The translations under genes were made by a program, and so were the position numbers. DNA of 64,000 nt from Cyanobacteria bacterium LVE1205-1 (GTDB lineage Bacteria; Cyanobacteriota; Cyanobacteriia; CAIUCS01): NCBI GenBank assembly GCA_041879355.1, contig CP089922.1, positions 864,498-928,497 on the forward strand. The letters run 5' to 3'. Below, piece by piece: positions 41,665 to 54,214 of this stretch (position 1 is the first letter of the stretch; every line of letters starts with the position of its first letter). The notes beneath the pieces were generated by a model. The model did no database searches. It was not told where the DNA came from and saw only the letters and a list, made by a program, of their open reading frames with translations.

Positions 41665-42305
41665 TATAATACTCCCCATATTCTGGACAGGTTAATAAGA
41701 TAGTCTCGCTGCCAATAGACTAAGAAACTATACGGAGGAGATTGCAAGCCATACAGCGAAAACGACATACCCCAGAGTTTAAGACGAAAGTGGTCGGGGA
41801 ATAAAACGATCAACGAAATCGCCAGTGAAATGGGGATTCACGCAACCCAGATTACTCAATGGAAAAAACAGGCTCAGGAAGGACTCAAGGAGATCTTTGC
41901 GGATCGCCGAGGGAAGAGCCAGGAACCCTTAATTGAGAACCTTTACCAGAACATTGGTCGGATCCAAGTGGAACTGGAATGGTTGCAAAAAAAATCTGGT
42001 CTTACCTCTTGAATCAAAGCGGGAATTCATTGAACTCGCAAACCGAGAGATCAGCATTGTGCGTCAGTGCGAATTGCTGGGACTCAATCGAAGCAGCCAG
42101 GGAAAGCTCACCTAACGAGTACCTGATGGGAAAGTTGGATGAGCAGTATACCCAAACTCCGTTCTACGGGGTATTGGGAATGACGGAAGTCCTGCGAGCC
42201 CAAGGAGAAGAGGTCAATCCTAAACGAGTCCGTCGTCTACTCAGGGTAATGGGGTTAGAAGCTATCTATCCCAAACCCAAAATCTCATCGCCAGGTGAGA
42301 ATAGT
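41665..42305 (+). mobile_element. IS3-family element copy A, 3'-truncated (orfA plus the first roughly 110 codons of orfB, ending at a junction with IS5)
   Basis: orfA reads ...GIHATQITQWKKQAQEGLKEIFADRRGKS...LEWLQKK, followed by an A8 slippery run. orfB N-terminus is ...ISIVRQCELLGLNRSS...PFYGVLGMTEVLRAQGEEVNPKRVRRLLRVMGLEAIYPKPKISS. The 5' 110 bp match the reverse complement of 47356..47466. Confidence 0.7.
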
Positions 42306-43021
42306 CGTCATAGTGGCGGCTGCTCCCCGCTGGGCAATGGCTTCATGACAGGCGAAGGTGTCATAGGCTCCATCGCCCGAAACTTGAGCAATCTCACCAG
42401 CAATGCCCTCTAGCAAACTGGGCAATATCTCGCTGTCGTGAAAGTCATTGGTGGTGACTTCAGCGACCATACTCTCGCCAGTGGACTCATCGATACCGAG
42501 GTGCAGCTTACGCCAGGTGCGCCGTTTGCCCACCCCATGTTGTCGGGATTTCCATTCCCCCTCTCCATACACTTTTACCCCCGTAGAATCCACCACAACA
42601 TGTCGAGCCCTGCTCTGCGGTTGAACCGGTATAGAAACCGATAAGGCAGCCAATCGACGCGATACCGTGCTGTGGTCGGGCATGGGTAGGGAGATGTCCA
42701 TCAACTGAAATACCGATTCAACAAATCCTTGAGCTTGACGCCCAGCCAGATGGAATAGGCTCTTGAGGGTCGCTACAGTCGCAATCGCCGTGTCACTGTA
42801 GAGTTGAGAGGCTCCTCGCCGACCCGTCGCGGTGTTCATTACCCATTGCTCAAGGGCATCTTTGCTCAACCATAGGGTGAGAGTGCCGCGCTGCTTCAGA
42901 CCAGCGTTACAATCAGACCAGTTGCGGACTCGGTACGGCATAGATGTCAGGTTTTAGGTGGTACTTCAACTTTACGCTATACCTACCCCGTCCGTAACAC
43001 CCTATTTATGCAACAACGCCC
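42306..43021 (-). mobile_element. IS5-family element copy 1, 3'-truncated (N-terminal 210 aa of the transposase)
   Basis: Transposase MPYRVRNWSDCNAGLKQRGTLTLWLSKD...DDE region ...VVDSTGVKVYGEGEW is about 95% identical to copy 2 at 50141..51070. The shared IR GGCGTTGTTGCATAAATAGGG lies at 43000-43021. It diverges from copy 2 after ...AQRGAAAT. Confidence 0.75.
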
Positions 43022-43187: not shown

Positions 43188-43493
43188 TTACCGCAGTCTT
43201 TCTAAGGCATCAGGAAAAGTGATAGTCAACAGTTGCCGCAAGTTTCGGTTAGTAACATTACCACAAGATAGCCAAAGGATTTGAGGAGGGCTTCCCAATC
43301 GGCAGACCAAATCAACAAAATCGCTATCCTTGGTCATGATGACAGCATTCTCAACTCGTGCTGCCTCAAAGATTTCGATATCCTTGGCATCTCGTAGCCC
43401 GAAATCTCGCAACGCCATCCCATTTACTTTAAATGTAGCATTTAGCCAGCAGGCTAACGTTGGAGGTAACTGAGCATCAATCCAAATATTCAT
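43188..43493 (-). CDS. DUF5615 (PIN-like) putative toxin
   Basis: 101 aa, MNIWIDAQLP..L...L....F.V.....FG...A.D.EIFE.A......I.TKDSDF. Its start overlaps the upstream DUF433 gene by 4 bp. Confidence 0.7.
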   Translation of the reverse strand: MNIWIDAQLPPTLACWLNATFKVNGMALRDFGLRDAKDIEIFEAARVENAVIMTKDSDFVDLVCRLGSPPQILWLSCGNVTNRNLRQLLTITFPDALERLR

Positions 43494-43804
43494 GCGGTCA
43501 ATCGAGGAAAGTCAGTACGCCGTGCAGCAAATAGCAAGCAAGCTTGAATGTCTTCAGGCTCTAAATCAGGAAAGTCTTCCAAGATTTCTTTGATATTGAC
43601 GTTTTCAGCCAACATCTCTAAAATATCACTCACTCGAATTCTCATTCCTCGAATGCAAGGGCGACCACCGCACTGCCCAGGAGTCTCCGTGATACGGGTC
43701 AATAAGTTAGGTGACTGGCTCATTATGGATTTAGATGATGGGTTAGAGTTGTTGTCTTCATCATACAAGCCCTCGTGAGTAGTATAAAGTTGGTTGATTG
43801 ACAA
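43490..43804 (-). CDS. DUF433 putative antitoxin
   Basis: The C-terminal GGRPCIRGMRIRVSDILEMLAENVNIKEILEDFPDLEPEDIQACLLFAA is the DUF433 signature. Confidence 0.7.
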   Translation of the reverse strand: MSINQLYTTHEGLYDEDNNSNPSSKSIMSQSPNLLTRITETPGQCGGRPCIRGMRIRVSDILEMLAENVNIKEILEDFPDLEPEDIQACLLFAARRTDFPRLTA

Positions 43805-43889: not shown

Positions 43890-44206
43890 AGTCAATCAGA
43901 GTATAAAGTTGAAGAAGAAAAGCTACTGCATCAGAGGACTAACAACTCAGCTGGAGCGGACTGACGAGAGATTCTGGTCGGGGTGCAAAGGTTATTAGTC
44001 GCCGCTGATTGGGAACGTTATGCCGAAACCGAGAAGTCCATTTAAGTTGCTTGTTCCTAGCCGAGATTAGACAAGCAAAGGTTGTTGGATTCGGTGAGCG
44101 GCGATCGCTGTTGCAAGCGGCAATCCGTTCAAGTATAATAAATGATTGGTATGGGCATAAATTATTTCAGCCGTTATGCATCAACAATTGCAACAGAATT
44201 TCCATA

Positions 44207-45745
44207 ATGACGAGTACCCAACAACGCGCCGCTCTGCAACGCCAAATCTGGCAAATCGCTAATGATCTTCGCGGCTCAGTGGATGGCTGGGATTTTAAGC
44301 AATATGTCCTCGGCACGCTGTTTTACCGCTTTATCAGTGAAAACTTTACCAGCTACATTGAGGCTGATGATGACAGCATCCACTACGCCGAGCTGCCCGA
44401 TAGTATTGTTACCGACGATATTAAAGACGATGCCATCAAAACTAAAGGCTATTTTATTTATCCTAGCCAGTTGTTTGCCAACATTGCTGGCAATGCCAAC
44501 GCGAACGAAAGCCTGAATACTGACCTAGCGGCGATTTTTGCGGCGATCGAAAGTTCTGCCAATGGCTACCCCTCCGAGATGGACATCAAGGGGCTGTTTG
44601 CCGACTTTGACACCACCAGCAACCGCCTCGGCAACACGGTTAAAGATAAAAACCTACGCTTGGCTGCGGTACTAAAAGGCGTGGCAGGGCTAGATTTTGG
44701 TGGTTTTGATACCAGCCATATCGATTTGTTTGGCGATGCCTATGAGTTTTTGATCTCTAACTATGCCGCCAATGCAGGTAAATCGGGGGCGAGTTTTTTA
44801 CGCCGCAGCATGTTTCGCGGTTGATTGCCCAGCTTGCCATGCACCGGCAAACCAGTGTCAATAGAATTTATGACCCCGCCTGTGGTTCGGGTTCGCTGCT
44901 GTTGCAAGGGAAAAAGCATTTTGATGCTCATATTATTGAGGATGGTTTTTACGGGCAGGAGATTAACCACACGACCTATAACTTGGCGCGGATGAATATG
45001 TTTTTGCATAACATCAACTACGACAAGTTTAATATGCAGTTGGGCAATACCCTGATTGACCCGCATTTTCAGGATGACAAGCCCTTTGATGCCATCGTCT
45101 CCAACCCTCCCTATTCAGTGAACTGGATTGGTAGTGATGACCCGACGCTGATTAATGACGATCGCTTTGCCCCTGCGGGTGCTTGCGCCGAAGTCGAAGG
45201 CGGATTTTGCGTTTGTGTTGCATTGTTTGAGTTATTTATCGAGCCGGGGACGGGCGGCGATCGTCTGCTTCCCTGGCATTTTTTATCGGGGCGGGGCGGA
45301 AGCCAAAATCAGAAAGTATCTGGTGGATAACAACTATGTGGAAACGGTGATCGCCCTTGCGCCGAATCTGTTTTTTGGCACGACCATCGCTGTGACGATT
45401 TTGGTGCTATCTAAACACAAGCCCGACACGACTACCCAGTTTATTGATGCCAGTGGTTTGTTTAAGAAGGAAACGAACAATAACACCTTAACGGATGACC
45501 ATATTGCGGCAATTATGGGGGTGTTTGACAGTAAGGAAAATGTGGTTCATTTTGCCCGATCGGTAGCCTGTGAAGAGATTGCAGCGAATGATTACAATCT
45601 ATCGGTGAGTAGTTATGTGGAAGCCAAGGACACCCGCGAAATCACGGACATCACTGCCCTGAATGCTAAATTAAAAACCACTGTTGCCAAGATCGATCGC
45701 CTGCGGACTGAGATTGAGGCGATCGTGGCGGAGATTGAAGGATGA
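44207..45745 (+). CDS. hsdM: Type I restriction-modification methyltransferase subunit HsdM, orphan (no hsdS or hsdR nearby) and split by two indels (about 44810, about 45180). GC content is higher than in neighbouring sequence.
   Basis: An N-terminal HsdM_N region ([32 protein letters not shown]), the AdoMet motif [11 protein letters not shown], and the catalytic NPPY (VSNPPYSV). Confidence 0.75.
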
Positions 45746-45823: not shown

Positions 45824-46147
45824 ATGGAAAAACAGGAGGAAATATGGCAAGCAGTTGGCAGAATTACAGTTAATTTTCCATTGCTAGAATGTGATAAGTG
45901 CGCGATTACTGTAATGCGGTGGCTAAAAAAGCGGGGCATTGAAGCAAAGATTCTGCGATTACGAACCAAACGCCGTAGCGAAAACTTTATCACAAGCGAT
46001 CGCTATGGACTAGAAGAAGCAATAACTGAAAATGGGACTCATTACGGAGTAGAAGTCATGGGAAAAGTATTTGATAATTTATCTGCTGAAGGCTTGTCTC
46101 GTGAAGATTGGCTAAAAGACTTTAGGGCGTTGCAGGATAAAGTATGA
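45824..46147 (+). CDS. Hypothetical protein. The last 8 codons are read from the terminal IR of the adjacent IS1-family element, so the gene is 3'-truncated by the IS.
   Basis: The ORF runs into the sequence TTTAGGGCGTTGCAGGATAAAGTATGA, which recurs at 51160-51185 as the IS1 end. Confidence 0.35.
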   Translation: MEKQEEIWQAVGRITVNFPLLECDKCAITVMRWLKKRGIEAKILRLRTKRRSENFITSDRYGLEEAITENGTHYGVEVMGKVFDNLSAEGLSREDWLKDFRALQDKV

Positions 46148-46750
46148 ATCATGAAGAGAACAGGACAGAAGGGTCATGAAGATAATGAATCAACAACCGC
46201 ACAGAGTAACGCAACATATCTACAGACTTGGAATAGCAGAAGGTTTTACGGTGCAATCGTGCCAGATAGTGACCTAACCGAGAGTTTTCTCCCTCAACTC
46301 GCTTCATGGAAGTCTTGCTAATAATCTGATCACCATCAGGGATAAAACTTGGATATACAGTCCATCCATCAGTGACATAGAAATAGCATTGCCATGCCAC
46401 TACTATTGTCCATAATGGCTCAAAAGTCTCAGCACTATGATCACCTAAAGTCCAAGCTAGGATGCCCTTACGGAAATGGTCTACTGCTGTCCACACCCAA
46501 ATCTTGTTTTTTTGATCCGATAAATGTTTCCAGTTCATCCCATTCGCCCACATCGGGGATATTCTCTGGGGGATCGCATCAGGTAACTTCTTGCCTTTTT
46601 GTTTAAACCAATCAATGACTGTGGTGTGATGTACTCCCATCACTCTTTCTATAGCCCTGAATCCCATGCCATTGAGTATGGTACTCCCCAATGTCAAGAC
46701 AGAAAAAGAGTGAATTTAAGAAGTAATCTCGCTTAGCAGTGCATTTGTTG
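46125..46750 (-). mobile_element. IS1-family element (InsB-like transposase ORF 46149..46697), apparently lacking an upstream insA
   Basis: MGFRAIERVMGVHHTTVIDWFKQ (HTH) ...WVWTAVD...DHSAETFEPLW...YVTDGWTVY...RVEGENSRLGHYLARLHRKTFCYSKSVDMLRYSVRLLIHYL matches IS1 InsB. Confidence 0.7.
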
Positions 46751-47466
46751 TTGATGTTACATTAATTACATCACCTCCTTGTAAGGCATTTGTTGGTTAA
46801 TGCTGGACATAAGACAGGAAGACTCAATGCGAATCCATTACAAGGAGGCATTGCCTTTTCTGTGAACCATAGCTGGTGTCTGATAATCCAACCACTGATG
46901 TAAACGATCGTGGTTATAAAATCTGAAATAGTCCCCAATCCCTTGAATTGCCTCTGGCACAGACCTGTAGGACTTTAGGTACACATCCTCGTATTTCAAT
47001 GAGCGCCAAAGCCATTCCACAAAAATGTTGTCTAGGACTCGACTACGCCCATCCTGACTGATTGTTTCCCTCCTTTGAGTAAACGGTCAGTAAAAGCAAT
47101 GCTGGTAAATTGGCTGCCCTGGTCGGTATTGAAAATCTCTGGTATCCCTTGAGAGAGCACTTTCCAGGGCATCCAGACAAAGGGTTCCTGGCTCTGGCTC
47201 TTCCCTCGGCGATCCGCAAAGATCTCCTTGAGTCCTCCCTGAGCCTGTTTTTTCCATTGAGTAATCTGGGTTGGGTGAATTCCCATTTCACTGACAATTT
47301 CGTTGATCGTTTTATTCCCCTTGAAAACCTCTAAGACCACTTTCGTCTTAAACTTTGGGGTATGTCGTTTTCGCTGTATGGCTTGCAATCTCCTCCGTAT
47401 AGTTTCTTAGTCTATTGGCAGCGAGACTATCTTATTAACCTGTCCAGAATATGGGAAGTATTATAT
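46750..47466 (-). mobile_element. IS3-family element copy B, internally deleted. orfA is fused in frame to the last roughly 65 codons of orfB, giving a 118 aa ORF at 47032..47388 plus a 60 aa ORF at 46838..47020.
   Basis: MQAIQRKRHTPKFKTKVV...GIHPTQITQWKKQAQGGLKEIFADRRGKSQSQEP | ...IFNTDQGSQFTS...YLKSYRSVPEAIQGIGDYFRFYNHDRLHQWLDYQTPAMV. The terminal 110 bp are inverted relative to copy A. Confidence 0.7.
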
Positions 47467-47572
47467 TGTACGTGAGCATATTTTTGCTAATCTTAATAGC
47501 GATTGCATGATCTAGCGGTCATAGATCATGTTTTTGTCAATGCGCAAGTCCTAGAGACTTAAGTGAAATCAC

Positions 47573-48236
47573 ATGAAAGAGAAACTTAAACTAATCCTCA
47601 GTGAACAGGGCATTTTCCCTACTATAGATAATTTTCGGCGCTTACCTCAAATAAGCAGGTGGTTAGTAAGTGGTTGCAGGGGCATCGCACCGCCGCCAGT
47701 AAAACGTATGGTGATCAAGAGCTATTTGAGAACTTACGATCTTAATTGGTTTATCGAAACTGGAACCCATTTAGGCGATACCTTAGCTGATGTGGCCTTT
47801 GATAAATCATTGCAAACAGTGAGTATTGAATTAGCTGATAACTATTACCATACTGCTCAAAAGCGCTTTGCAAACTATACCAATGTTGAGCTTTTTCATG
47901 GAGACAGTGGAACGTTAATACCCCAGGTAGTTGCTAGGTTACAAGAACCTGCACTTTTCTGGCTTGATGGACATTATAGCGGCGGAGTAACCGCTAGGGA
48001 GAGATTTAGAAACACCAGTTAGTCAGGAACTTCAGGCAATTTTAGCCTCTCCTGTGAGAGGGCATGTCATTTTAATTGATGACATACGATGCTTTGATGG
48101 TACTCACGATTATCCTTATTTAGATGACTTTTTAGCTGCTATCCGTACCGATGGTCGTTATCACATTGAGGTGTCGGCCGATATTTTGCGTATGACTCCT
48201 AACTACTCCCGGTTCACCCATTTTTGCGAGAGTTAG
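47573..48236 (+). CDS. Putative class I SAM-dependent methyltransferase-like protein, split by an indel near 48020-48055
   Basis: Two consecutive ORFs: ...FIETGTHLGDTLADVA...VELFHGDSGTLIP...LFWLDGHYSGG, then ...GHVILIDDIRCFDG. The family assignment is weak. Confidence 0.35.
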
Positions 48237-48325
48237 AAGAATTCTATTGAGGAGTAAAAGATTGACCACTAATCTGAGTATGAATAGTAGGGGGAAACCC
48301 AAGTAAAACAAGAATACGCTGCTAT

Positions 48326-50040
48326 AACCTACATTCCGCAGGTTGACAGGGAATAAAAGATGCGGGATGTTCTAAGCTAAAGGGAAGTCCTTCTAGCAGT
48401 AGGTTCCTCCCTTGCAAATCGAGAATTTAGACCATCTCGGCTTAGTGGCGGGGATGATTGATGAATTAGGTCTAGTAGAGCTGACCAACGAGCAGATTGA
48501 ACCCCACTGCCTGGAGCATGTGAGTGCAGGGCAAGTGGTGAAAGCGATGATCCTCAACGCCCTGGGCTTTCTGAGTGTGCCGTTATACCTATTCAGCGAG
48601 TTTTTTGACAGTAAGGCGGTGTCCCACCTGAATGATGACCGCTTAGGGCGGGTGTTAAATCAACTCTACGAGGCAGGCATCACCCCATTGCTCATGAAGG
48701 TGGCACTGCAAGCGGTACAGCGGTTTGGCATCAACATCGAGCAGTGCCATCTAGATTCGACCTCGATATCGGTTGAGGGGGAGTATGCCTGGGCTACAGT
48801 GACTAAACCCAAGGGGTCAGCAGAGAAGGACAGTCGTGAGGAACCGATTCCGATTGAGATTTGTCGAGGCTATTCCCGAGATCACCGACCAGATTTGAAG
48901 CAGTTCTTGCTCACCGTGTAGCGCCGATGGGGGTGTACCGCTGTGGTTCAAGGTAGCCAGTGGCAATCGCCCCGACAGTGAGGTGTTGCCCAAGTGCTGA
49001 AAAACTTTAGCGAGCAGTGGACTCAGGAGGGAGTGTTTGTGATGGATGCTGCCTTTTACACTCAGCCAAACCTACAGCAGGTGGGGAGTCTGGGGTGGCT
49101 ATCGCGGGTACCCCTGACCCTAAAGGCAGCTCAAGCACTGGTTCAGAGCGAGGTGAGTCTGCTGTCAGAGGTCACTTGCGACTCATTGGATTATCGGATG
49201 TGGGAAGTCGAACCTATGGCGAGGTAGCCCAGCGTTGGGTGTTAATCGAAAGTCAGCACCGCAAAGCCAATGATGCCCTGTGGCGACTGGAAGTAGAGAA
49301 GCTAGAAAGTCGGCTCAATGGGCAGCTCAAGGCTCTCACCCAGACAGTGTTTGCCTGCAAACCCGATGCCTTGGACGCGGTGATGGCGTTTCAAGATAGC
49401 TTGGAGCTCCATCAATTGACCCACATTAGCCAACCCAGTCCTGTCCAAGCGAGCCCCCGGTCGTCCGTCCAAGGAGGCTGAGCCGGTCTCGGTTCAGGGC
49501 TATCAACTACAGGCAACGTTGGAGCGCAAAGCCAATACCGAAGAGACCTTTAGCCACCAGCGTAGCCACTTTATCCTGGCAACCAACCAATTGGATAAAA
49601 CGCGGTGGTCAGCGCAGAAGCTATTGCAGGAATATAAAGCTCAACAAACTGTAGAGCGAGGGTTTCGCTTCCTCAAAGACCCCCTGTTCTTTGTCAGTAG
49701 TGTGGTTGTCAAAAAGCCCCAGCGGGTCGAGGCACTGGCACTGATTATGGCTCTCACCTTGATGGTCTACACCCTGGCAGAACGCAAGCTGCGTCAGACC
49801 CTCGAAGACCAAAACCAGACGGTGTGCGACCAACGCAAACAGCCTACTGCTAAGCCCACCTTTCGTTGGATTATGCAAAAGTTTCAGGGTATTCACTGGA
49901 TCAACCTGGAGGGACAGCACCAGATCAGCAACCTGAGCGATGAGCGACGACTGATTATTCGCCTATTGGGACCACCAGTTGAGCGGTATTACTACGCATC
50001 TGGTTAATCATTTATCAATCTGCGGAATGTAGGTTAAAAC
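48326..50040 (+). mobile_element. IS1634-family element (about 1.7 kb) with 23 bp terminal IRs AACCTACATTCCGCAG(G/A)TTGA and a 5 bp TSD ACGCT. The transposase is split into 3 ORFs.
   Basis: A DUF4277-like N-terminus (MQIENLDHLGLVAGMIDELGLVE...HVSAGQVVKAMILNALGFLS..LYLF.EFF), ...RGYSRDHRPDLKQ, and the C-terminal DDE region. ACGCT is found at 48321-48325 and 50041-50045. Confidence 0.75.
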
Positions 50041-50067
50041 GCTAGTTTAGAAGATCTATATGGCGTT

Positions 50068-51125
50068 GTTGCATGAATAGGGTGTCACGAACGGGGTAGG
50101 TATAGCGTAAAGTTGAAGTACCATCTAAAACCTGACACCTATGCCGTACCGAGTCCGCAACTGGTCTGATTATAACGCTGGTCTGAAGGAGCGCGGCAGT
50201 CTCACCCTATGGTTGAGCAAAGATGCCCTTGAGCAATGGGTAATGAACACCGCGACGGGTCGGCGAGGAGCCTCTCAACTCTACAGTGACACGGCGATTG
50301 CGACTGTAGCGACCCTCAAGAGCGTATTCCATCTGGCTGGGCGTTAAGCCCAGGGATTTGTCGAATCGGTGTTTCAGTTGATGAATATCCCCTTACCCGT
50401 GCCCGACCACAGTACGGTATCGCGTCGATTGTCCGCCTTATCGGTCTCTATACCGGTTCAACCGCAGAGCAGGGCTCGGCATGTTGTGGTGGATTCTACG
50501 GGGGTAAAAGTGTATGGAGAGGGGGAATGGAAAGCCCGACAACATGGGGTGGGCAAACGGCGCACCTGGCGTAAGCTGCACCTCGGTATCGATGAGTCCA
50601 CTGGCGAGAGTATGGTCGCTGAAGTCACCACCAATGACTTTCACGACAGCGAGATATTGCCCAGTTTGCTAGAGGGCATTGCTGGTGAGATGGCTCAAGT
50701 TTCGGGCGATGGAGCCTATGACACCTTCGCCTGTCATGAAGCCATTGCCCAGCGGGGAGCAGCCGCCACTATTCCGCCTCGCCATGATGCCCGCCCCACA
50801 CTCAGCATGGAGTACCTAACCCGACCCACCCCAGGGACTAAATCTTGCAACGTATTGAGCAGGTGGATCGTGCGGACTGGAGGCAAGAGAGCGGCTATCA
50901 CCGTCGGTCTCTTGCTGAAACCACTATGTTTCGTCTCAAGGTCACCTTTGGGGGGCGCGTCCGATTCGCGGAGTTTTGACAACCAGGCTGTCGAGCTCTT
51001 CTTGCAGTGTGCGGCGCTGAATCGTATGATTCAAGTGGCTAAGCCTGATAGCTATCCGGTTGAAGCTTAACTTACTGACCTTAACGGCGAAACCCCTGAC
51101 CCTGGATTATTCATGCAACAAAGCC
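50068..51125 (+). mobile_element. IS5-family element copy 2, full length (IRL GGCGTTGTTGCATGAATA / IRR GGCTTTGTTGCATGAATA). The transposase has one frameshift at about 50345-50370.
   Basis: ORFs 50141..50347 and 50369..51070 together give a roughly 310 aa DDE transposase. The 18 bp imperfect IRs are at both ends. Confidence 0.8.
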
Positions 51126-51185
51126 TATCTTCATGACCCTTCTGTCCTGTTCTCTTCATGATTCATACTTTATCCTGCAACGCCC
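51126..51185 (+). mobile_element. 60 bp terminal remnant of an IS1-family element (identical to the reverse complement of 46125..46185)
   Basis: TATCTTCATGACCCTTCTGTCCTGTTCTCTTCATGATTCATACTTTATCCTGCAACGCCC is shared with the IS1 copy at 46125. Confidence 0.65.
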
Positions 51186-51377
51186 GGCGTTCATTTGGTT
51201 AATCAGTCGATTTTGCAGAGCATTCATTCCCGAAGAACAGCAATTTTGCCATCCATTTACAAAAACAATATAAGGACGTGATGATTGCACTGCTGCTGGT
51301 CTTGTTAACAACGCTGTTCCAAGCAATGAAGTGAACATTACCGAACTAACCTTGGTCAGTATCTTACCTAATTTCAT
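51186..51377 (-). CDS. Integron cassette 2 ORF, 3'-truncated by an IS1 remnant: a signal peptide plus a possible alpha/beta-hydrolase (lipase-like) start
   Basis: MKLGKILTKVSSVMFTSLLGTALLTRPAAVQS|SRPYIVFVNGWQNCC.... The last 9 codons of the listed ORF (51156..51185) come from the IS1 IR. Confidence 0.4.
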
Positions 51378-51501
51378 TCAGTTACCTACTACTTATAACT
51401 TTTCCAAACAATTTTCGGCGAATCAGTTTAAATACTGCTTTACCCTTTGACTTTTACATCCAGCAGATGAATTCTAACTGCACCTTGATAAAAAGCTAGC
51501 G

Positions 51502-51588
51502 GTCTAACGTTCCCGCTCACCGGACGTAGATGAATTTGGCAACCAACTGACTGCTTAAATACGTTCCGGTGCAGCGGGCTTGTTAGAC
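51502..51588 (-). other. Integron attC recombination site (87 bp): inverse core GTCTAAC, imperfect palindrome with 2 extrahelical bases, core GTTAGAC
   Basis: GTCTAAC-G-TTCCCGCTCACCGGACGT...(loop)...ACGTTCCGGTGCAGCGGG-CTT-GTTAGAC. The arms pair except for a bulged T and a bulged C on the plus strand. It lies 24 bp downstream of the cassette 1 stop. Confidence 0.7.
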
Positions 51589-51612
51589 TGCTGTCGCGAC
51601 TACACACCCTGA

Positions 51613-52935
51613 TTACTCCTCAGGATCTCTTGAAAATCTGTATTGCTGGATAGGCAAGTTATCTCGGCGTTCAGGTAATCTTTCCAAGGGACTAATGAAA
51701 AGCCTAGATCTCGATTCTTCTATAATACGAACCCCACCTTGATTTCTAACAAAGCTCTGAAATTCCTGTAAATTCTGAATTCCAACTCCCAATTGCAGCG
51801 AAAAATCAAGAGTCTTTGCAGATGGATCAAAAGCTTCACCCATAGCAAGATTTCTAAACCAACGAAGCTTTAAGTTTTCACTTAAAGTAGCAGGAGGAAT
51901 CATAGGAGATGATGCTGGTATCTGGGCTGTTAAATGGCAGCTAAGACAAGAGGAAACGGGATTATCTACTGGGCCGTTCCCTCGTCCAGCCCAGCCTAGA
52001 GTTTTTGGAGGATTAATCCCAGCAGGTGGATTAGAGCGATATTTTACAATTGGTGCATCAGAGTCAATCCATGATTCCTTGGGACGTTGCCCTGTATCAT
52101 ACATTGACTGTGTTAAGTCTGGATCATTACCCCACATCAGAGTTAGTGGACGAACCCTTTTCCAAGGTGAGTCAGCCTGCACACTTGAATCATACTGAAA
52201 GGTTCCAAATACCCATCCACTAGCTTTAGAACGCCCATCGCGTACTGCAACATCAATCTGTAATAATCTAACTTTAGTAGCTTGAATAGTATCTACATTT
52301 CCACTTCTATCAATGTCTGCAACCCACTCAGGAGAGCCGTCAAGGTAAGGAACCTCTGAAACAGGTGCGGTGGTGAATAACAATTTATAGGAAACTGTAC
52401 CCTCTGGGAATTTTGCTTTCTCAACATCTGGCTTATCAGGCTTAGACCACACTTGCCCAAGAGTAAATCCTCCAGCACTGTTGTAAAAACCGATTGCATA
52501 ATTTCTATACTGCTGGCTTTGCTGTGGAGATAGCTCAAATGGTCTTGAGCTACGCTCACGTGTTAATCCATGAACAAATTCACGACCATTATTCCCCCAA
52601 TGCAACCAAGGCGCGTGAAACCATTTGCGAACAGTGTTTTTTTGAACCGCAAAATCATTTTCTAAACTACCTTCATAGCTGTAGTTCAAGACAGCCATTA
52701 AATACTCACGAGGGGAAGTTCGGAAATCAATGTTCATCCAGGGAGCATTTTCAGCTTCGGGTTTTTGTTGAGGGTAATCCTGGCTTAAGACAAACTTGCT
52801 TTCACTCCAGTTAGATGGGGGACTATATCCAATATCTGGGAATGTTGCAGCTAGTACTTGATTCAAAAACAACGATTGTATAAATACAAGTATTGCAACT
52901 GTGAGAAAGCATTTCTTTATCTTCTCAATGAACAT
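51613..52935 (-). CDS. Integron cassette 1 ORF: a 440 aa secreted protein of unknown family with a single CXXCH motif
   Basis: A Sec signal peptide (MFIEKIKKCFLTVAILVFIQSLFLNQVLA|AT), no recognisable domain, and ...NPVSSCLSCHLTAQ near the C-terminus. It is bounded by the attI R box (53014-53020) and the attC. Confidence 0.7.
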   Translation of the reverse strand: MFIEKIKKCFLTVAILVFIQSLFLNQVLAATFPDIGYSPPSNWSESKFVLSQDYPQQKPEAENAPWMNIDFRTSPREYLMAVLNYSYEGSLENDFAVQKNTVRKWFHAPWLHWGNNGREFVHGLTRERSSRPFELSPQQSQQYRNYAIGFYNSAGGFTLGQVWSKPDKPDVEKAKFPEGTVSYKLLFTTAPVSEVPYLDGSPEWVADIDRSGNVDTIQATKVRLLQIDVAVRDGRSKASGWVFGTFQYDSSVQADSPWKRVRPLTLMWGNDPDLTQSMYDTGQRPKESWIDSDAPIVKYRSNPPAGINPPKTLGWAGRGNGPVDNPVSSCLSCHLTAQIPASSPMIPPATLSENLKLRWFRNLAMGEAFDPSAKTLDFSLQLGVGIQNLQEFQSFVRNQGGVRIIEESRSRLFISPLERLPERRDNLPIQQYRFSRDPEE

Positions 52936-53013
52936 TGAAACACCTAGTTTTATTTTGAGTACTTTACCGTCGAGCCAGAATCATGAAGAAAACACTGCCT
53001 AGAATTTGAAGCA

Positions 53014-53200
53014 GTCTAACTATGTATTAGACAGAAACTTTCTGTCTAATCTGACTATAGGCGATTTAGCCCGAAAGTCAAATTTCTGCCTAATCACCCT
53101 ATATGTCATGTTATACGGAAACTTTCTGACTAAATACCCCATACGTTATGTTATGAAGAATCTTTCTGAATAATCATCCAAATAGCGTGTTAGCCCGACT
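53014..53200 (-). other. Putative attI: a simple site (L box GTCTAAT, 5 bp spacer, R box GTTAGAC on the minus strand) plus four tandem degenerate 40 bp direct repeats between it and intI
   Basis: Plus strand 53014-53032 is GTCTAACTATGTATTAGAC. Repeats GAAACTTTCTGTCTAAT (53034), AAATTTCTGCCTAAT (53080), GAAACTTTCTGACTAAA (53118) and AATCTTTCTGAATAAT (53159) alternate with related 20 bp spacers. There are several GTTA-containing core-like heptamers. Confidence 0.55.
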
Positions 53201-53242: not shown

Positions 53243-54214
53243 ATGCAGTCTGAGCCATCGCATCGAAAGCTATTAGATAGGGTACGGGATCAAGTCAGGG
53301 TTAAGCATTACTCCTATCGCACTGAAGAGACTTATGTACAGTGGATTCGGCGATTTATCTTGTTTCACAACAAGCGGCATCCTAGCGAGATGGATGGCGA
53401 TGAAGTGAATGCCTTTTTGACCCACTTGGCGGTGCATGAAAATGTGGCAGCATCAACCCAAAACCAAGCTCTATGCGCCATTTTGTTTTTATATCGTGAG
53501 GTATTGCAGCAAGAGCTAAACCTCAATCTGGACACAGTGAGAGCAAAGCGTCCCCATTACTTGCCAACGGTCTTGACTGTTGAAGAAACTTTAGAAATCT
53601 TAAAAAATCTTACGGGTGTTTATCAGATTGTTGCCAAGTTGCTTTATGGTTCGGGATTACGCCTCAATGAAGCATTGTCCCTACGGGTTAAGGATCTTGA
53701 TTTTGCCCAACAGCAGATTATTGTCAGAGATAGTAAGGGGATGGAAAGTCGTGTAACAATGCTGCCCAAAAATGTTGTTGAGCAACTTAAAGAACATTTA
53801 CAACAGGTAAAGCGTACACATCAACAGGATCTAGATAGAGGTTATGGGGAGACGCTGTTACCCTTTGCTTTACAGAAAAAATATCCTAACGCCGCCAAAG
53901 AATGGATTTGGCAATATGTATTTCCTGCGGGTCGCATTGCCAAAGATCCGCGTAGTGAATTGATGTGTCGCTATCATCTTCATGAAAGCGGAATGCAAAA
54001 ATCGCTGAAGCAAGCCGTGAGAATTGCCAAGATCGAAAAACGGATCGGATGTCATACCTTTCGCCATAGTTTCGCTACACATTTATTGCAAAATGGCTAT
54101 GATATCCGCACGGTGCAAGAGTTATTGGGACATAAAGATGTAAAGACAACGATGATTTATACCCATATGCTGAATCGGGGTGGAAAGGGTGTGATTAGTC
54201 CGCTTGATCGCTAG
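53243..54214 (+). CDS. intI: Integron integrase
   Basis: 323 aa tyrosine recombinase with catalytic R ([15 protein letters not shown]), H-x-x-R ([13 protein letters not shown]) and Y (MIYTHML). It has the IntI-specific additional domain ([20 protein letters not shown]) and an IntI-type C-terminus ([28 protein letters not shown]). Confidence 0.93.

Follow-up and report, generated by a model that had tools for sequence, protein, structure and literature searches.

An 87-base hairpin upstream of an integron integrase gene in a Pseudanabaena-like cyanobacterium is very probably the attC of cassette 1 in a chromosomal integron

Introduction

Integrons have already been reported from Cyanobacteria (Cury et al. 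2016, PMC4889954), and a Cyanobacteria-specific model of their attC sites has already been published (Ghaly et al. 2021, PMC8352920). The attC that we describe here is an ordinary member of this known cyanobacterial type. Like the chromosomal attCs of Cyanobacteria, it is about 87 nt long, carries R boxes at its ends and contains the core TCA(C/G)CGG ... T-CCG(G/C)TG-C-A; the loop motif, the T-N6-C arrangement of the bulges and the orientation upstream of intI are also alike, and no structural difference is apparent. The taxon, together with our surrogate covariance model R2, suggests that the site falls into the class described by Ghaly et al.

In attC sites, the bottom strand is told by extrahelical bases on the arm opposite the AAC triplet, the extrahelical base on the L'' side is "usually a G", and the unpaired central spacer usually comprises 5-6 nt (PMC5027507). 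In addition, the attCs of mobile integrons show a folding bias of 2.1 kcal/mol in favor of the bottom strand, along with a purine skew (PMC5027507). A spacing of 6 bp between the bulges is needed for efficient recombination (PMC5027507; PMC3053210). A cytosine in place of the guanine was known in 2011 from the blaVIM-2 attC alone, and T-N6-C sites are excised by IntI1, IntI2*179E, IntI3 and SonIntIA, with IntI1 treating them equally to T-N6-G sites and the other three integrases excising them better (PMC3053210).

A first-pass annotation of the DNA studied here had pointed out a well-formed attC with two bulged bases, whose strand asymmetry was said to match the orientation of the neighboring intI gene. 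We followed up this observation by folding, covariance modeling and comparison with related loci.

Materials and methods

The window is the whole stretch of DNA that was analyzed (64 kb), and all coordinates refer to it unless a locus is named. Its IntI protein served as query for related loci, with one genome per species, which gave 80 loci, mostly from cyanobacteria; the closest are Pseudanabaena-type MAGs with 85-96% identity. A heuristic scan and BLAST over these intI-related loci yielded sites with the same arms. Fourteen attCs aligned cleanly (92% of cells paired, 12 pairs changed on both sides), and the first model, R1, gave 118 matches in 1.07 Mb.

The alignment A5 comprises 66 distinct attCs from other cyanobacterial genomes only (loci L001-L074), with the window left out. 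The covariance model R2 was built from A5 and run on the window with filters off. Since the window had been part of the first model, with which the seeds of R2 were found, the independence of R2 is good, but not absolute. An integron was regarded as complete if intI is accompanied by one or more attCs (Cury et al. 2016, PMC4889954).

Results

The hairpin at 51502-51588 comprises the following parts:

51502-51588, plus strand, putative bottom (recombinogenic) strand: very probable attC of cassette 1, 87 nt, recognized by sequence, DNA fold and covariance model R2
51502-51508, plus strand (putative bottom strand): R' box GTCTAAC, a perfect RYYYAAC
51512-51527, plus strand: 5' arm (L' side) CCCGCTCACCGGACGT, partner of 51561-51578; the homologous columns covary in related attCs
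51528-51560, plus strand: variable terminal structure, a loop region of 33 nt, mostly unpaired in the fold
51561-51578, plus strand: 3' arm (L'' side) ACGT-T-CCGGTG-C-AGCGGG, bearing both extrahelical bases
51565, plus strand: extrahelical T, the distal bulge (T in 98 of 102 related attCs)
51572, plus strand: extrahelical C in the L'' box (C in 93 of 102 related attCs)
51582-51588, plus strand: R'' box GTTAGAC, a perfect GTTRRRY that complements the R' box exactly

The first-pass annotation had read perfect GTCTAAC and GTTAGAC boxes 80 bp apart, paired arms between them, and an extra C and an extra T on the 3' arm of the plus strand, and we could confirm this base for base. R' and R'' lie 80 bp apart from start to start and are perfect reverse complements (7 of 7 positions), and the inner stem of 16 bp is accompanied by two single-base bulges on the plus-strand 3' arm. 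On this arm, C51572 and either T51564 or T51565 stay unpaired. In the single sequence, T51564 would be equally possible, but the family alignment marks T51565 as the homologous bulge, which results in a T-N6-C arrangement where 6 bp (CCGGTG) separate T51565 from C51572. We take T51565 to be the counterpart of T23/24, or of T12'' in the VCR. The stem outside the C bulge measures 6 bp, and the central spacer GTT/CTT holds 2-3 unpaired nt with a possible G.T pair. With its 87 bp, the site lies inside the length range of attCs, which extends from 57 to 141 bp.

Both strands fold into the stable bulged hairpin that the annotation had led us to expect. Folded as DNA, the plus strand (101 nt) reached -26.5 kcal/mol (z = -6.9), and none of 200 shuffles was as stable; the minus strand reached -24.5 kcal/mol (z = -5.6) and forms a mirror hairpin with the bulges on its 5' arm. 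The difference of 2 kcal/mol between these longer folds stems from the flanks: for the exact 87-nt attC, the values were -21.7 (plus) and -22.1 kcal/mol (minus), that is, the two strands are equally stable. Among all RYYYAAC...GTTRRRY pairs that lie 50-160 bp apart in the 64-kb window, the site is a clear outlier, with -0.249 kcal/mol per nt compared to -0.115 for the next pair. Sequence, fold z-score and outlier status among the R-box pairs thus confirm that the hairpin is real and far beyond chance.

Our data furthermore place the hairpin in a covarying family of attC sites. Paired cells make up 85.2% of A5, both partners have changed in 17 of 23 pairs, and double changes were counted in 268 cells, whereas sliding the partners by 1-3 columns as a control left 30-37% of the cells paired. 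R2, from which the window was left out, accepts 51502-51588 as an attC on the plus strand with 78.7 bits (E 3.5e-19), and this is the best-scoring R2 match, so that the earlier verdict of a well-formed attC stands; the minus strand scored 23.5 bits, which is 55 bits lower. The consensus and the covarying pairs are common to loci of Pseudanabaena, Tumidithrix, Stenomitos, Phormidesmis, Leptolyngbya and Chamaesiphon. About 60% of the family possess an extended outer stem with a short spacer, in which the pairs 11-85, 14-84 and 15-83 covary. The AAC triplet is near-invariant in the 102 family sites, and little or no variation occurs in the 3'-arm family columns T64, C65, G67, T69, C71 and A72.

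The 5' side of the attC loop is usually termed variable. In A5, this side (columns 26-40, corresponding to 51527-51541 in the window) is conserved across genera with the consensus GCAGATAACCTT, and the 5' part of the loop described here, AGAT.A..TTTG, agrees with this family consensus.

A generic hairpin, such as a terminator or a repeated extragenic palindrome whose likeness to R boxes would be a coincidence, could also be imagined here, because the structure begins 24 nt past the stop codon of a 440-aa gene, where terminators occur, and because both strands fold about equally well. This explanation is effectively refuted. No T-run follows the stem and a terminator scan gives no call, whereas the attC family model returns an E value of 3.5e-19. 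The near-invariant non-stem positions, both bulges and the loop motifs are common to about 100 sites beside intI elsewhere, and the hairpin is absent from ORF homologs of 81% identity in other genomes.

Upstream of which gene, and in which direction, this attC lies can be seen from the following feature:

53243-54214, plus strand: intI, integron integrase, 323 aa, full length (TIGR02249)

The IntI protein scored 458 bits against TIGR02249 (cutoff 265) and covers positions 1-314 of the 315 profile positions. Its residues 11-323 align to VchIntIA (PDB 2A3V) with an E value of 9e-90, through the alpha-I2/beta-4,5 region, and the catalytic HxxR and GH...Y motifs are conserved. Of the residues by which VchIntIA contacts flipped-out bases (contact list from PMC3053210), K213, Y214, W223, P236 and H245 are conserved in the window protein, while K150 and R162 are as in IntI1 (VchIntIA has Q145 and W157) and Y244 stands where VchIntIA has H240.

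The attC is located 1.65 kb, and thus less than 4 kb, upstream of intI, and its putative bottom strand is the intI-sense strand. This orientation is shared by the family, as 65 of the 66 A5 sites lie upstream of intI on the intI-sense strand, L030 being the exception. The bulges opposite the AAC arm (the mark of the bottom strand; PMC5027507), the R2 preference of 55 bits and the orientation of these 65 sites support the earlier proposal that the plus strand is the bottom, recombinogenic strand, which would make the minus strand the coding strand of the cassette. The agreement with the surroundings that the annotation had claimed was also recovered: intI lies on the plus strand (53243-54214), followed to its left by the attI junction (53014-53020) and by the 440-aa ORF on the minus strand. 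The features of a complete integron are present, comprising an IntI with the extra domain, an attC within 4 kb on the expected strand and an attI junction with variable content beyond.

The opposite strand assignment, with a recombinogenic minus strand in a cassette that was inserted backwards or in an array that runs the other way, appears very improbable to us. It would agree with the perfect symmetry of R' and R'' and with folding energies that do not separate the strands. However, the bulges and AAC share one arm on the minus strand, as is characteristic of a top strand (PMC5027507), R2 gives this strand 55 bits less, the family shows the same orientation to intI at 65 of 66 sites, and both the ORF and the attI junction fit coding on the minus strand.

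We rejected folding-energy asymmetry as a test of strand identity, as it is gone on the exact 87 nt and not significant over the 66 sites, where the mean advantage of the bottom strand was -0.32 kcal/mol (p = 0.19); no purine enrichment on the bottom strand was found across these 66 A5 sites. Strand identity in the cyanobacterial attC family seems to depend on where the bulges lie and on conserved sequence that is asymmetric.

Between attC and intI, we distinguished an attI region and a first cassette:

53014-53200, no strand assigned: attI region with the putative junction GTCTAA/C at 53014-53020, a palindrome and four direct repeats, conserved in nine genomes (alignment A1)
53054-53081, minus strand: candidate Pc, TTGACT-16-TATAGT, directed into the cassette (10 of 12 consensus positions, pattern only)
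51508-53019, minus strand: cassette 1 of the integron, 1512 bp, which reaches from the attI junction as far as the attC crossover and is delimited by the start of homology at 53014-53020
51613-52935, minus strand: ORF of cassette 1, 440 aa, with an N-terminal hydrophobic signal-like segment and a CLSCH (CXXCH) motif

Homology with the nine relatives (IntI 85-96% identical) starts abruptly at 53009-53024 and continues through intI. The conserved block opens with ...TAAC/TATGTATTAGACAGAAA (the slash marks the junction), and leftward of it each genome is unrelated to the others and ends in its own RYYTAA. We thus observe differing first cassettes at the same attI junction. The junction GTCTAA/C at 53014-53020 resembles an attI crossover at which different cassettes may have been inserted in each lineage, and unrelated DNA to the left of attI in every genome is what cassette turnover at attI predicts. 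As homology starts at GTCTAA/C, cassette 1 would span 51508-53019.

Beside the junction, at 53026-53050, lies the perfect palindrome ATTAGACAGAAA/TTTCTGTCTAAT of 12 nt, and attI further includes four imperfect direct repeats of about 40 bp, each with AGAAAnTTTCTGnCTAAT. The region is conserved in the nine related genomes, and its repeats may be binding sites for the integrase or a regulator. Promoter-like matches in the region of the candidate Pc are no more frequent than in its shuffles.

The 440-aa protein of cassette 1 shows a weak similarity to Cytochrome P460 (Pfam PF16694, E 0.0015, below the cutoff) and has 2412 homologs, nearly all of them unnamed. With its closest homologs (80-84% amino-acid and 81% nucleotide identity), it shares the ORF and 12-24 bp upstream, and the homology ends 5-7 bp past the stop codon. 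No attC was found downstream of these closest homologs on other cyanobacterial contigs (L082 5989-7330, L084 5977-7328), and none of the 80 intI-related loci encodes a homolog. In L082/L083, a family attC in matching orientation is followed by a tyrosinase gene and then by the homolog. The gene therefore occurs both inside and outside cassettes. The homolog comparison says nothing firm about the origin of cassette 1, as intergenic DNA would have diverged anyway at 81% coding identity, and it gave no direct evidence for the mobility of this cassette.

Beyond the attC, the array is interrupted:

51186-51507, minus strand: remnant of cassette 2 (start and 5' part of a gene), beginning at the attC crossover and cut at 51185/51186
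50062-51125, plus strand: IS5-family element that ends the recognizable array, with DDE_Tnp_1 and DDE_Tnp_1_5 domains and the terminal inverted repeats GGCGTTGTTGCATGAATA / GGCTTTGTTGCATGAATA
43937-44023, minus strand: decayed attC homolog, inverted (R2 51.2 bits, E 1.4e-11)

The 73-aa ORF of cassette 2 (51156-51377) extends into a 60-bp segment that adjoins the IS element and is probably a truncated gene. The annotation had drawn the cassette orientation from both cassette ORFs; the 440-aa ORF bears this out, and the 73-aa ORF, on the minus side, is probably a remnant of this kind. A full-sensitivity R2 scan of the window detected no attC after cassette 2.

The 60-bp segment at 51126-51185 is an exact inverted copy of 46125-46184, and the pair brackets a 5-kb nest of IS fragments. 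A complete Tox-PL-2 gene has its natural 3' end in the copy at 46125-46184, which contains a further 37 bp, and the copy at 51126-51185 truncates the ORF of cassette 2. Both copies adjoin an IS at the same end, namely the IS5-family element at 50062-51125 and an IS1-family fragment that starts at 46185, and further IS3-like and IS4-like fragments lie between them. Two explanations for this duplication were considered and dropped: an IS end, as there is no matching opposite inverted repeat, and paralogy of Tox-PL-2 and cassette 2, as there is no similarity outside the 60 bp.

A second, partial copy of the IS5-family element lies inverted at 42310-43020 (96% identical over 711 bp) and is truncated by another IS fragment. 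The two inverted copies are a possible substrate for an inversion that displaced the relic attC. A simple inversion between them was, however, not adopted as the cause, since the matching TAT flanks of the full copy argue against it, although 3 bp are too short to decide. We also observed that 41665-41922 resembles 47194-47465.

About 12 pairs are broken in the homolog at 43937-44023, which fails to fold (z = +0.84) and lies 7.5 kb from the first attC; it is probably a displaced relic of the same array. In the 64-kb window, a strict R-box and folding scan revealed no other attC, and the R2 scan gave 43937-44023 only, which leaves the first attC without an intact partner site in these 64 kb. 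IS-mediated rearrangement of a once longer array would be the simplest way to explain this state.

Two further observations concern the neighborhood of the relic. It adjoins an overlapping pair of DUF433 and DUF5615 (PIN-like) genes at 43188-43804 (minus strand), which is probably a toxin-antitoxin module; such modules are common in the arrays of chromosomal integrons. Between the relic and the Tox-PL-2 gene, an hsdM gene for a type I restriction-modification methylase (44009-45745, plus strand) is split over three frames and apparently a pseudogene.

In the complete genome of Pseudanabaena minima Chao 2107 (L040 8763-10017), intI is interrupted by about 1.25 kb and the sequence of the attI junction differs; no family attC was found within 10 kb upstream. 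This integron appears to be inactivated.

Discussion

We are highly confident that the 87-base hairpin is the attC that belongs to cassette 1 of a chromosomal integron in a Pseudanabaena-like cyanobacterium. According to this explanation, the plus strand, when single-stranded, would fold back on itself, with pairing of GTCTAAC to GTTAGAC and of the two inner arms to each other, leaving T51565 and C51572 flipped out on the arm opposite the AAC triplet. IntI, encoded 1.65 kb away, would bind this bottom-strand hairpin and distinguish it from the top strand by the two flipped-out bases. The integrase could then cut between A51507 and C51508, which is the AA/C cleavage position within the attC R' box given in PMC5027507. 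Recombination with attI (putative crossover 53019/53020) or with another attC would insert or excise the 1512-bp cassette, and the 440-aa gene would thereby have been placed on the minus strand downstream of attI. By analogy with integrons that have been studied, this cleavage, the reading of the bulges by IntI and activity at present may be expected here.

The site could also be a true attC by descent that is now a fossil, belonging to a decaying integron and persisting because it has not had the time to decay. An array with a single intact cassette and the truncation of cassette 2 at 51185/51186, beside the IS5-like element and the other IS fragments at 46185-51125, fit such a course, as do the decayed and inverted state of the only other attC homolog in the window and the interrupted intI of the relative P. 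minima Chao 2107 (L040), which has no attC within 10 kb. On the other hand, the window intI is full length with intact motifs, and the attC stem, in contrast to that of the decayed copy, is free of mismatches. First cassettes differ between genomes whose IntI proteins are 95-96% identical, which points to recent turnover in the lineage, and an exchange between attI and attC requires no second attC in cis. We therefore consider a fossil rather unlikely and prefer to regard the hairpin as the attC of a first cassette in an integron whose array has been eroded.

How does this attC compare with well-studied sites? The mobile-integron attCs attCaadA7 and attCant(3'')-Ia (T-N6-G) share with it the RYYYAAC/GTTRRRY boxes, the imperfect hairpin and two extrahelical bases opposite AAC, with a distal T and a spacing of 6 bp (PMC5027507, PMC3053210). 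They differ in the proximal bulge, which is C in the window attC instead of G, in the L stem outside the bulge (6 bp with a spacer of 2-3 nt, compared to 3 bp with 5-6 nt) and in the loop, which measures 33 nt here and about 3 nt there. Unlike mobile-integron attCs, the window attC furthermore has neither purine enrichment nor a folding advantage of the bottom strand. Like the window attC, the VCRs recognized by VchIntIA are large-looped attCs of a sedentary chromosomal integron, and the integrases largely agree in their contact residues of the T-pocket and alpha-I2, but VCRs are longer (about 120-130 nt) and have three bulges (G, T, T).

The same cytosine at the L''-side bulge occurs in the blaVIM-2 attC and in engineered T-N6-C mutants of attCdfrA1 (Larouche and Roy 2011, PMC3053210). 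These sites are clinical or engineered and were assayed with proteobacterial integrases, whereas the cyanobacterial C is natural, nearly fixed and known here from sequence. Among the plus-strand model matches in the related loci, T occupies the distal bulge in 98 of 102 and C the proximal bulge in 93 of 102 sites, and among the G-type matches inspected, G occurs at the proximal bulge in seven attCs of three non-cyanobacterial loci (L063, L068, L070). Since the model does detect such G-type sites, the dominance of C is not merely a model bias. The first-pass annotation had correctly reported T and C in place of the canonical T and G, but this is no peculiarity of the site; with C in 93 of 102 related attCs and T-N6-C sites known to recombine, C51572 is a trait of the lineage and no defect of this attC. 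In both its proximal C and its spacer of 2-3 nt, the window attC departs from the usual G and the usual 5-6 nt, and these usual features are typical of attCs, not defining. Its large loop and the lack of a folding or purine bias likewise touch no defining property.

These properties might indicate that cyanobacterial integrons use a flipped-out-base code of their own, consisting of T-N6-C and a spacer of 2-3 nt with no folding bias of the bottom strand, as a high-mobility attC variant or one that has co-evolved with its integrase clade. We offer this as a tentative suggestion that we hold to be possible, not likely; if true, strand choice would depend almost wholly on the position of the bulges. 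No signature of an adaptation of the integrase to C is visible, as the positions that contact the bulges equal those of IntI1.

Conclusion

The general understanding of how integrons work is unchanged by this attC. What is new, in a modest way, is the near-fixation of T-N6-C among the cyanobacterial attCs of our collection. The "canonical G" bulge goes back to studies of clinical and proteobacterial sites, and in the collected cyanobacterial sites it is replaced by C. These sites also lack the asymmetries in folding energy and purine content that are thought to aid strand choice in mobile integrons. For the Pseudanabaena-like organism, our analysis fixes the annotation boundaries of a complete but eroding integron, with intI at 53243-54214, the putative attI crossover at 53019/53020, cassette 1 at 51508-53019 and the attC at 51502-51588, and it marks the secreted 440-aa CXXCH protein as mobile cargo.
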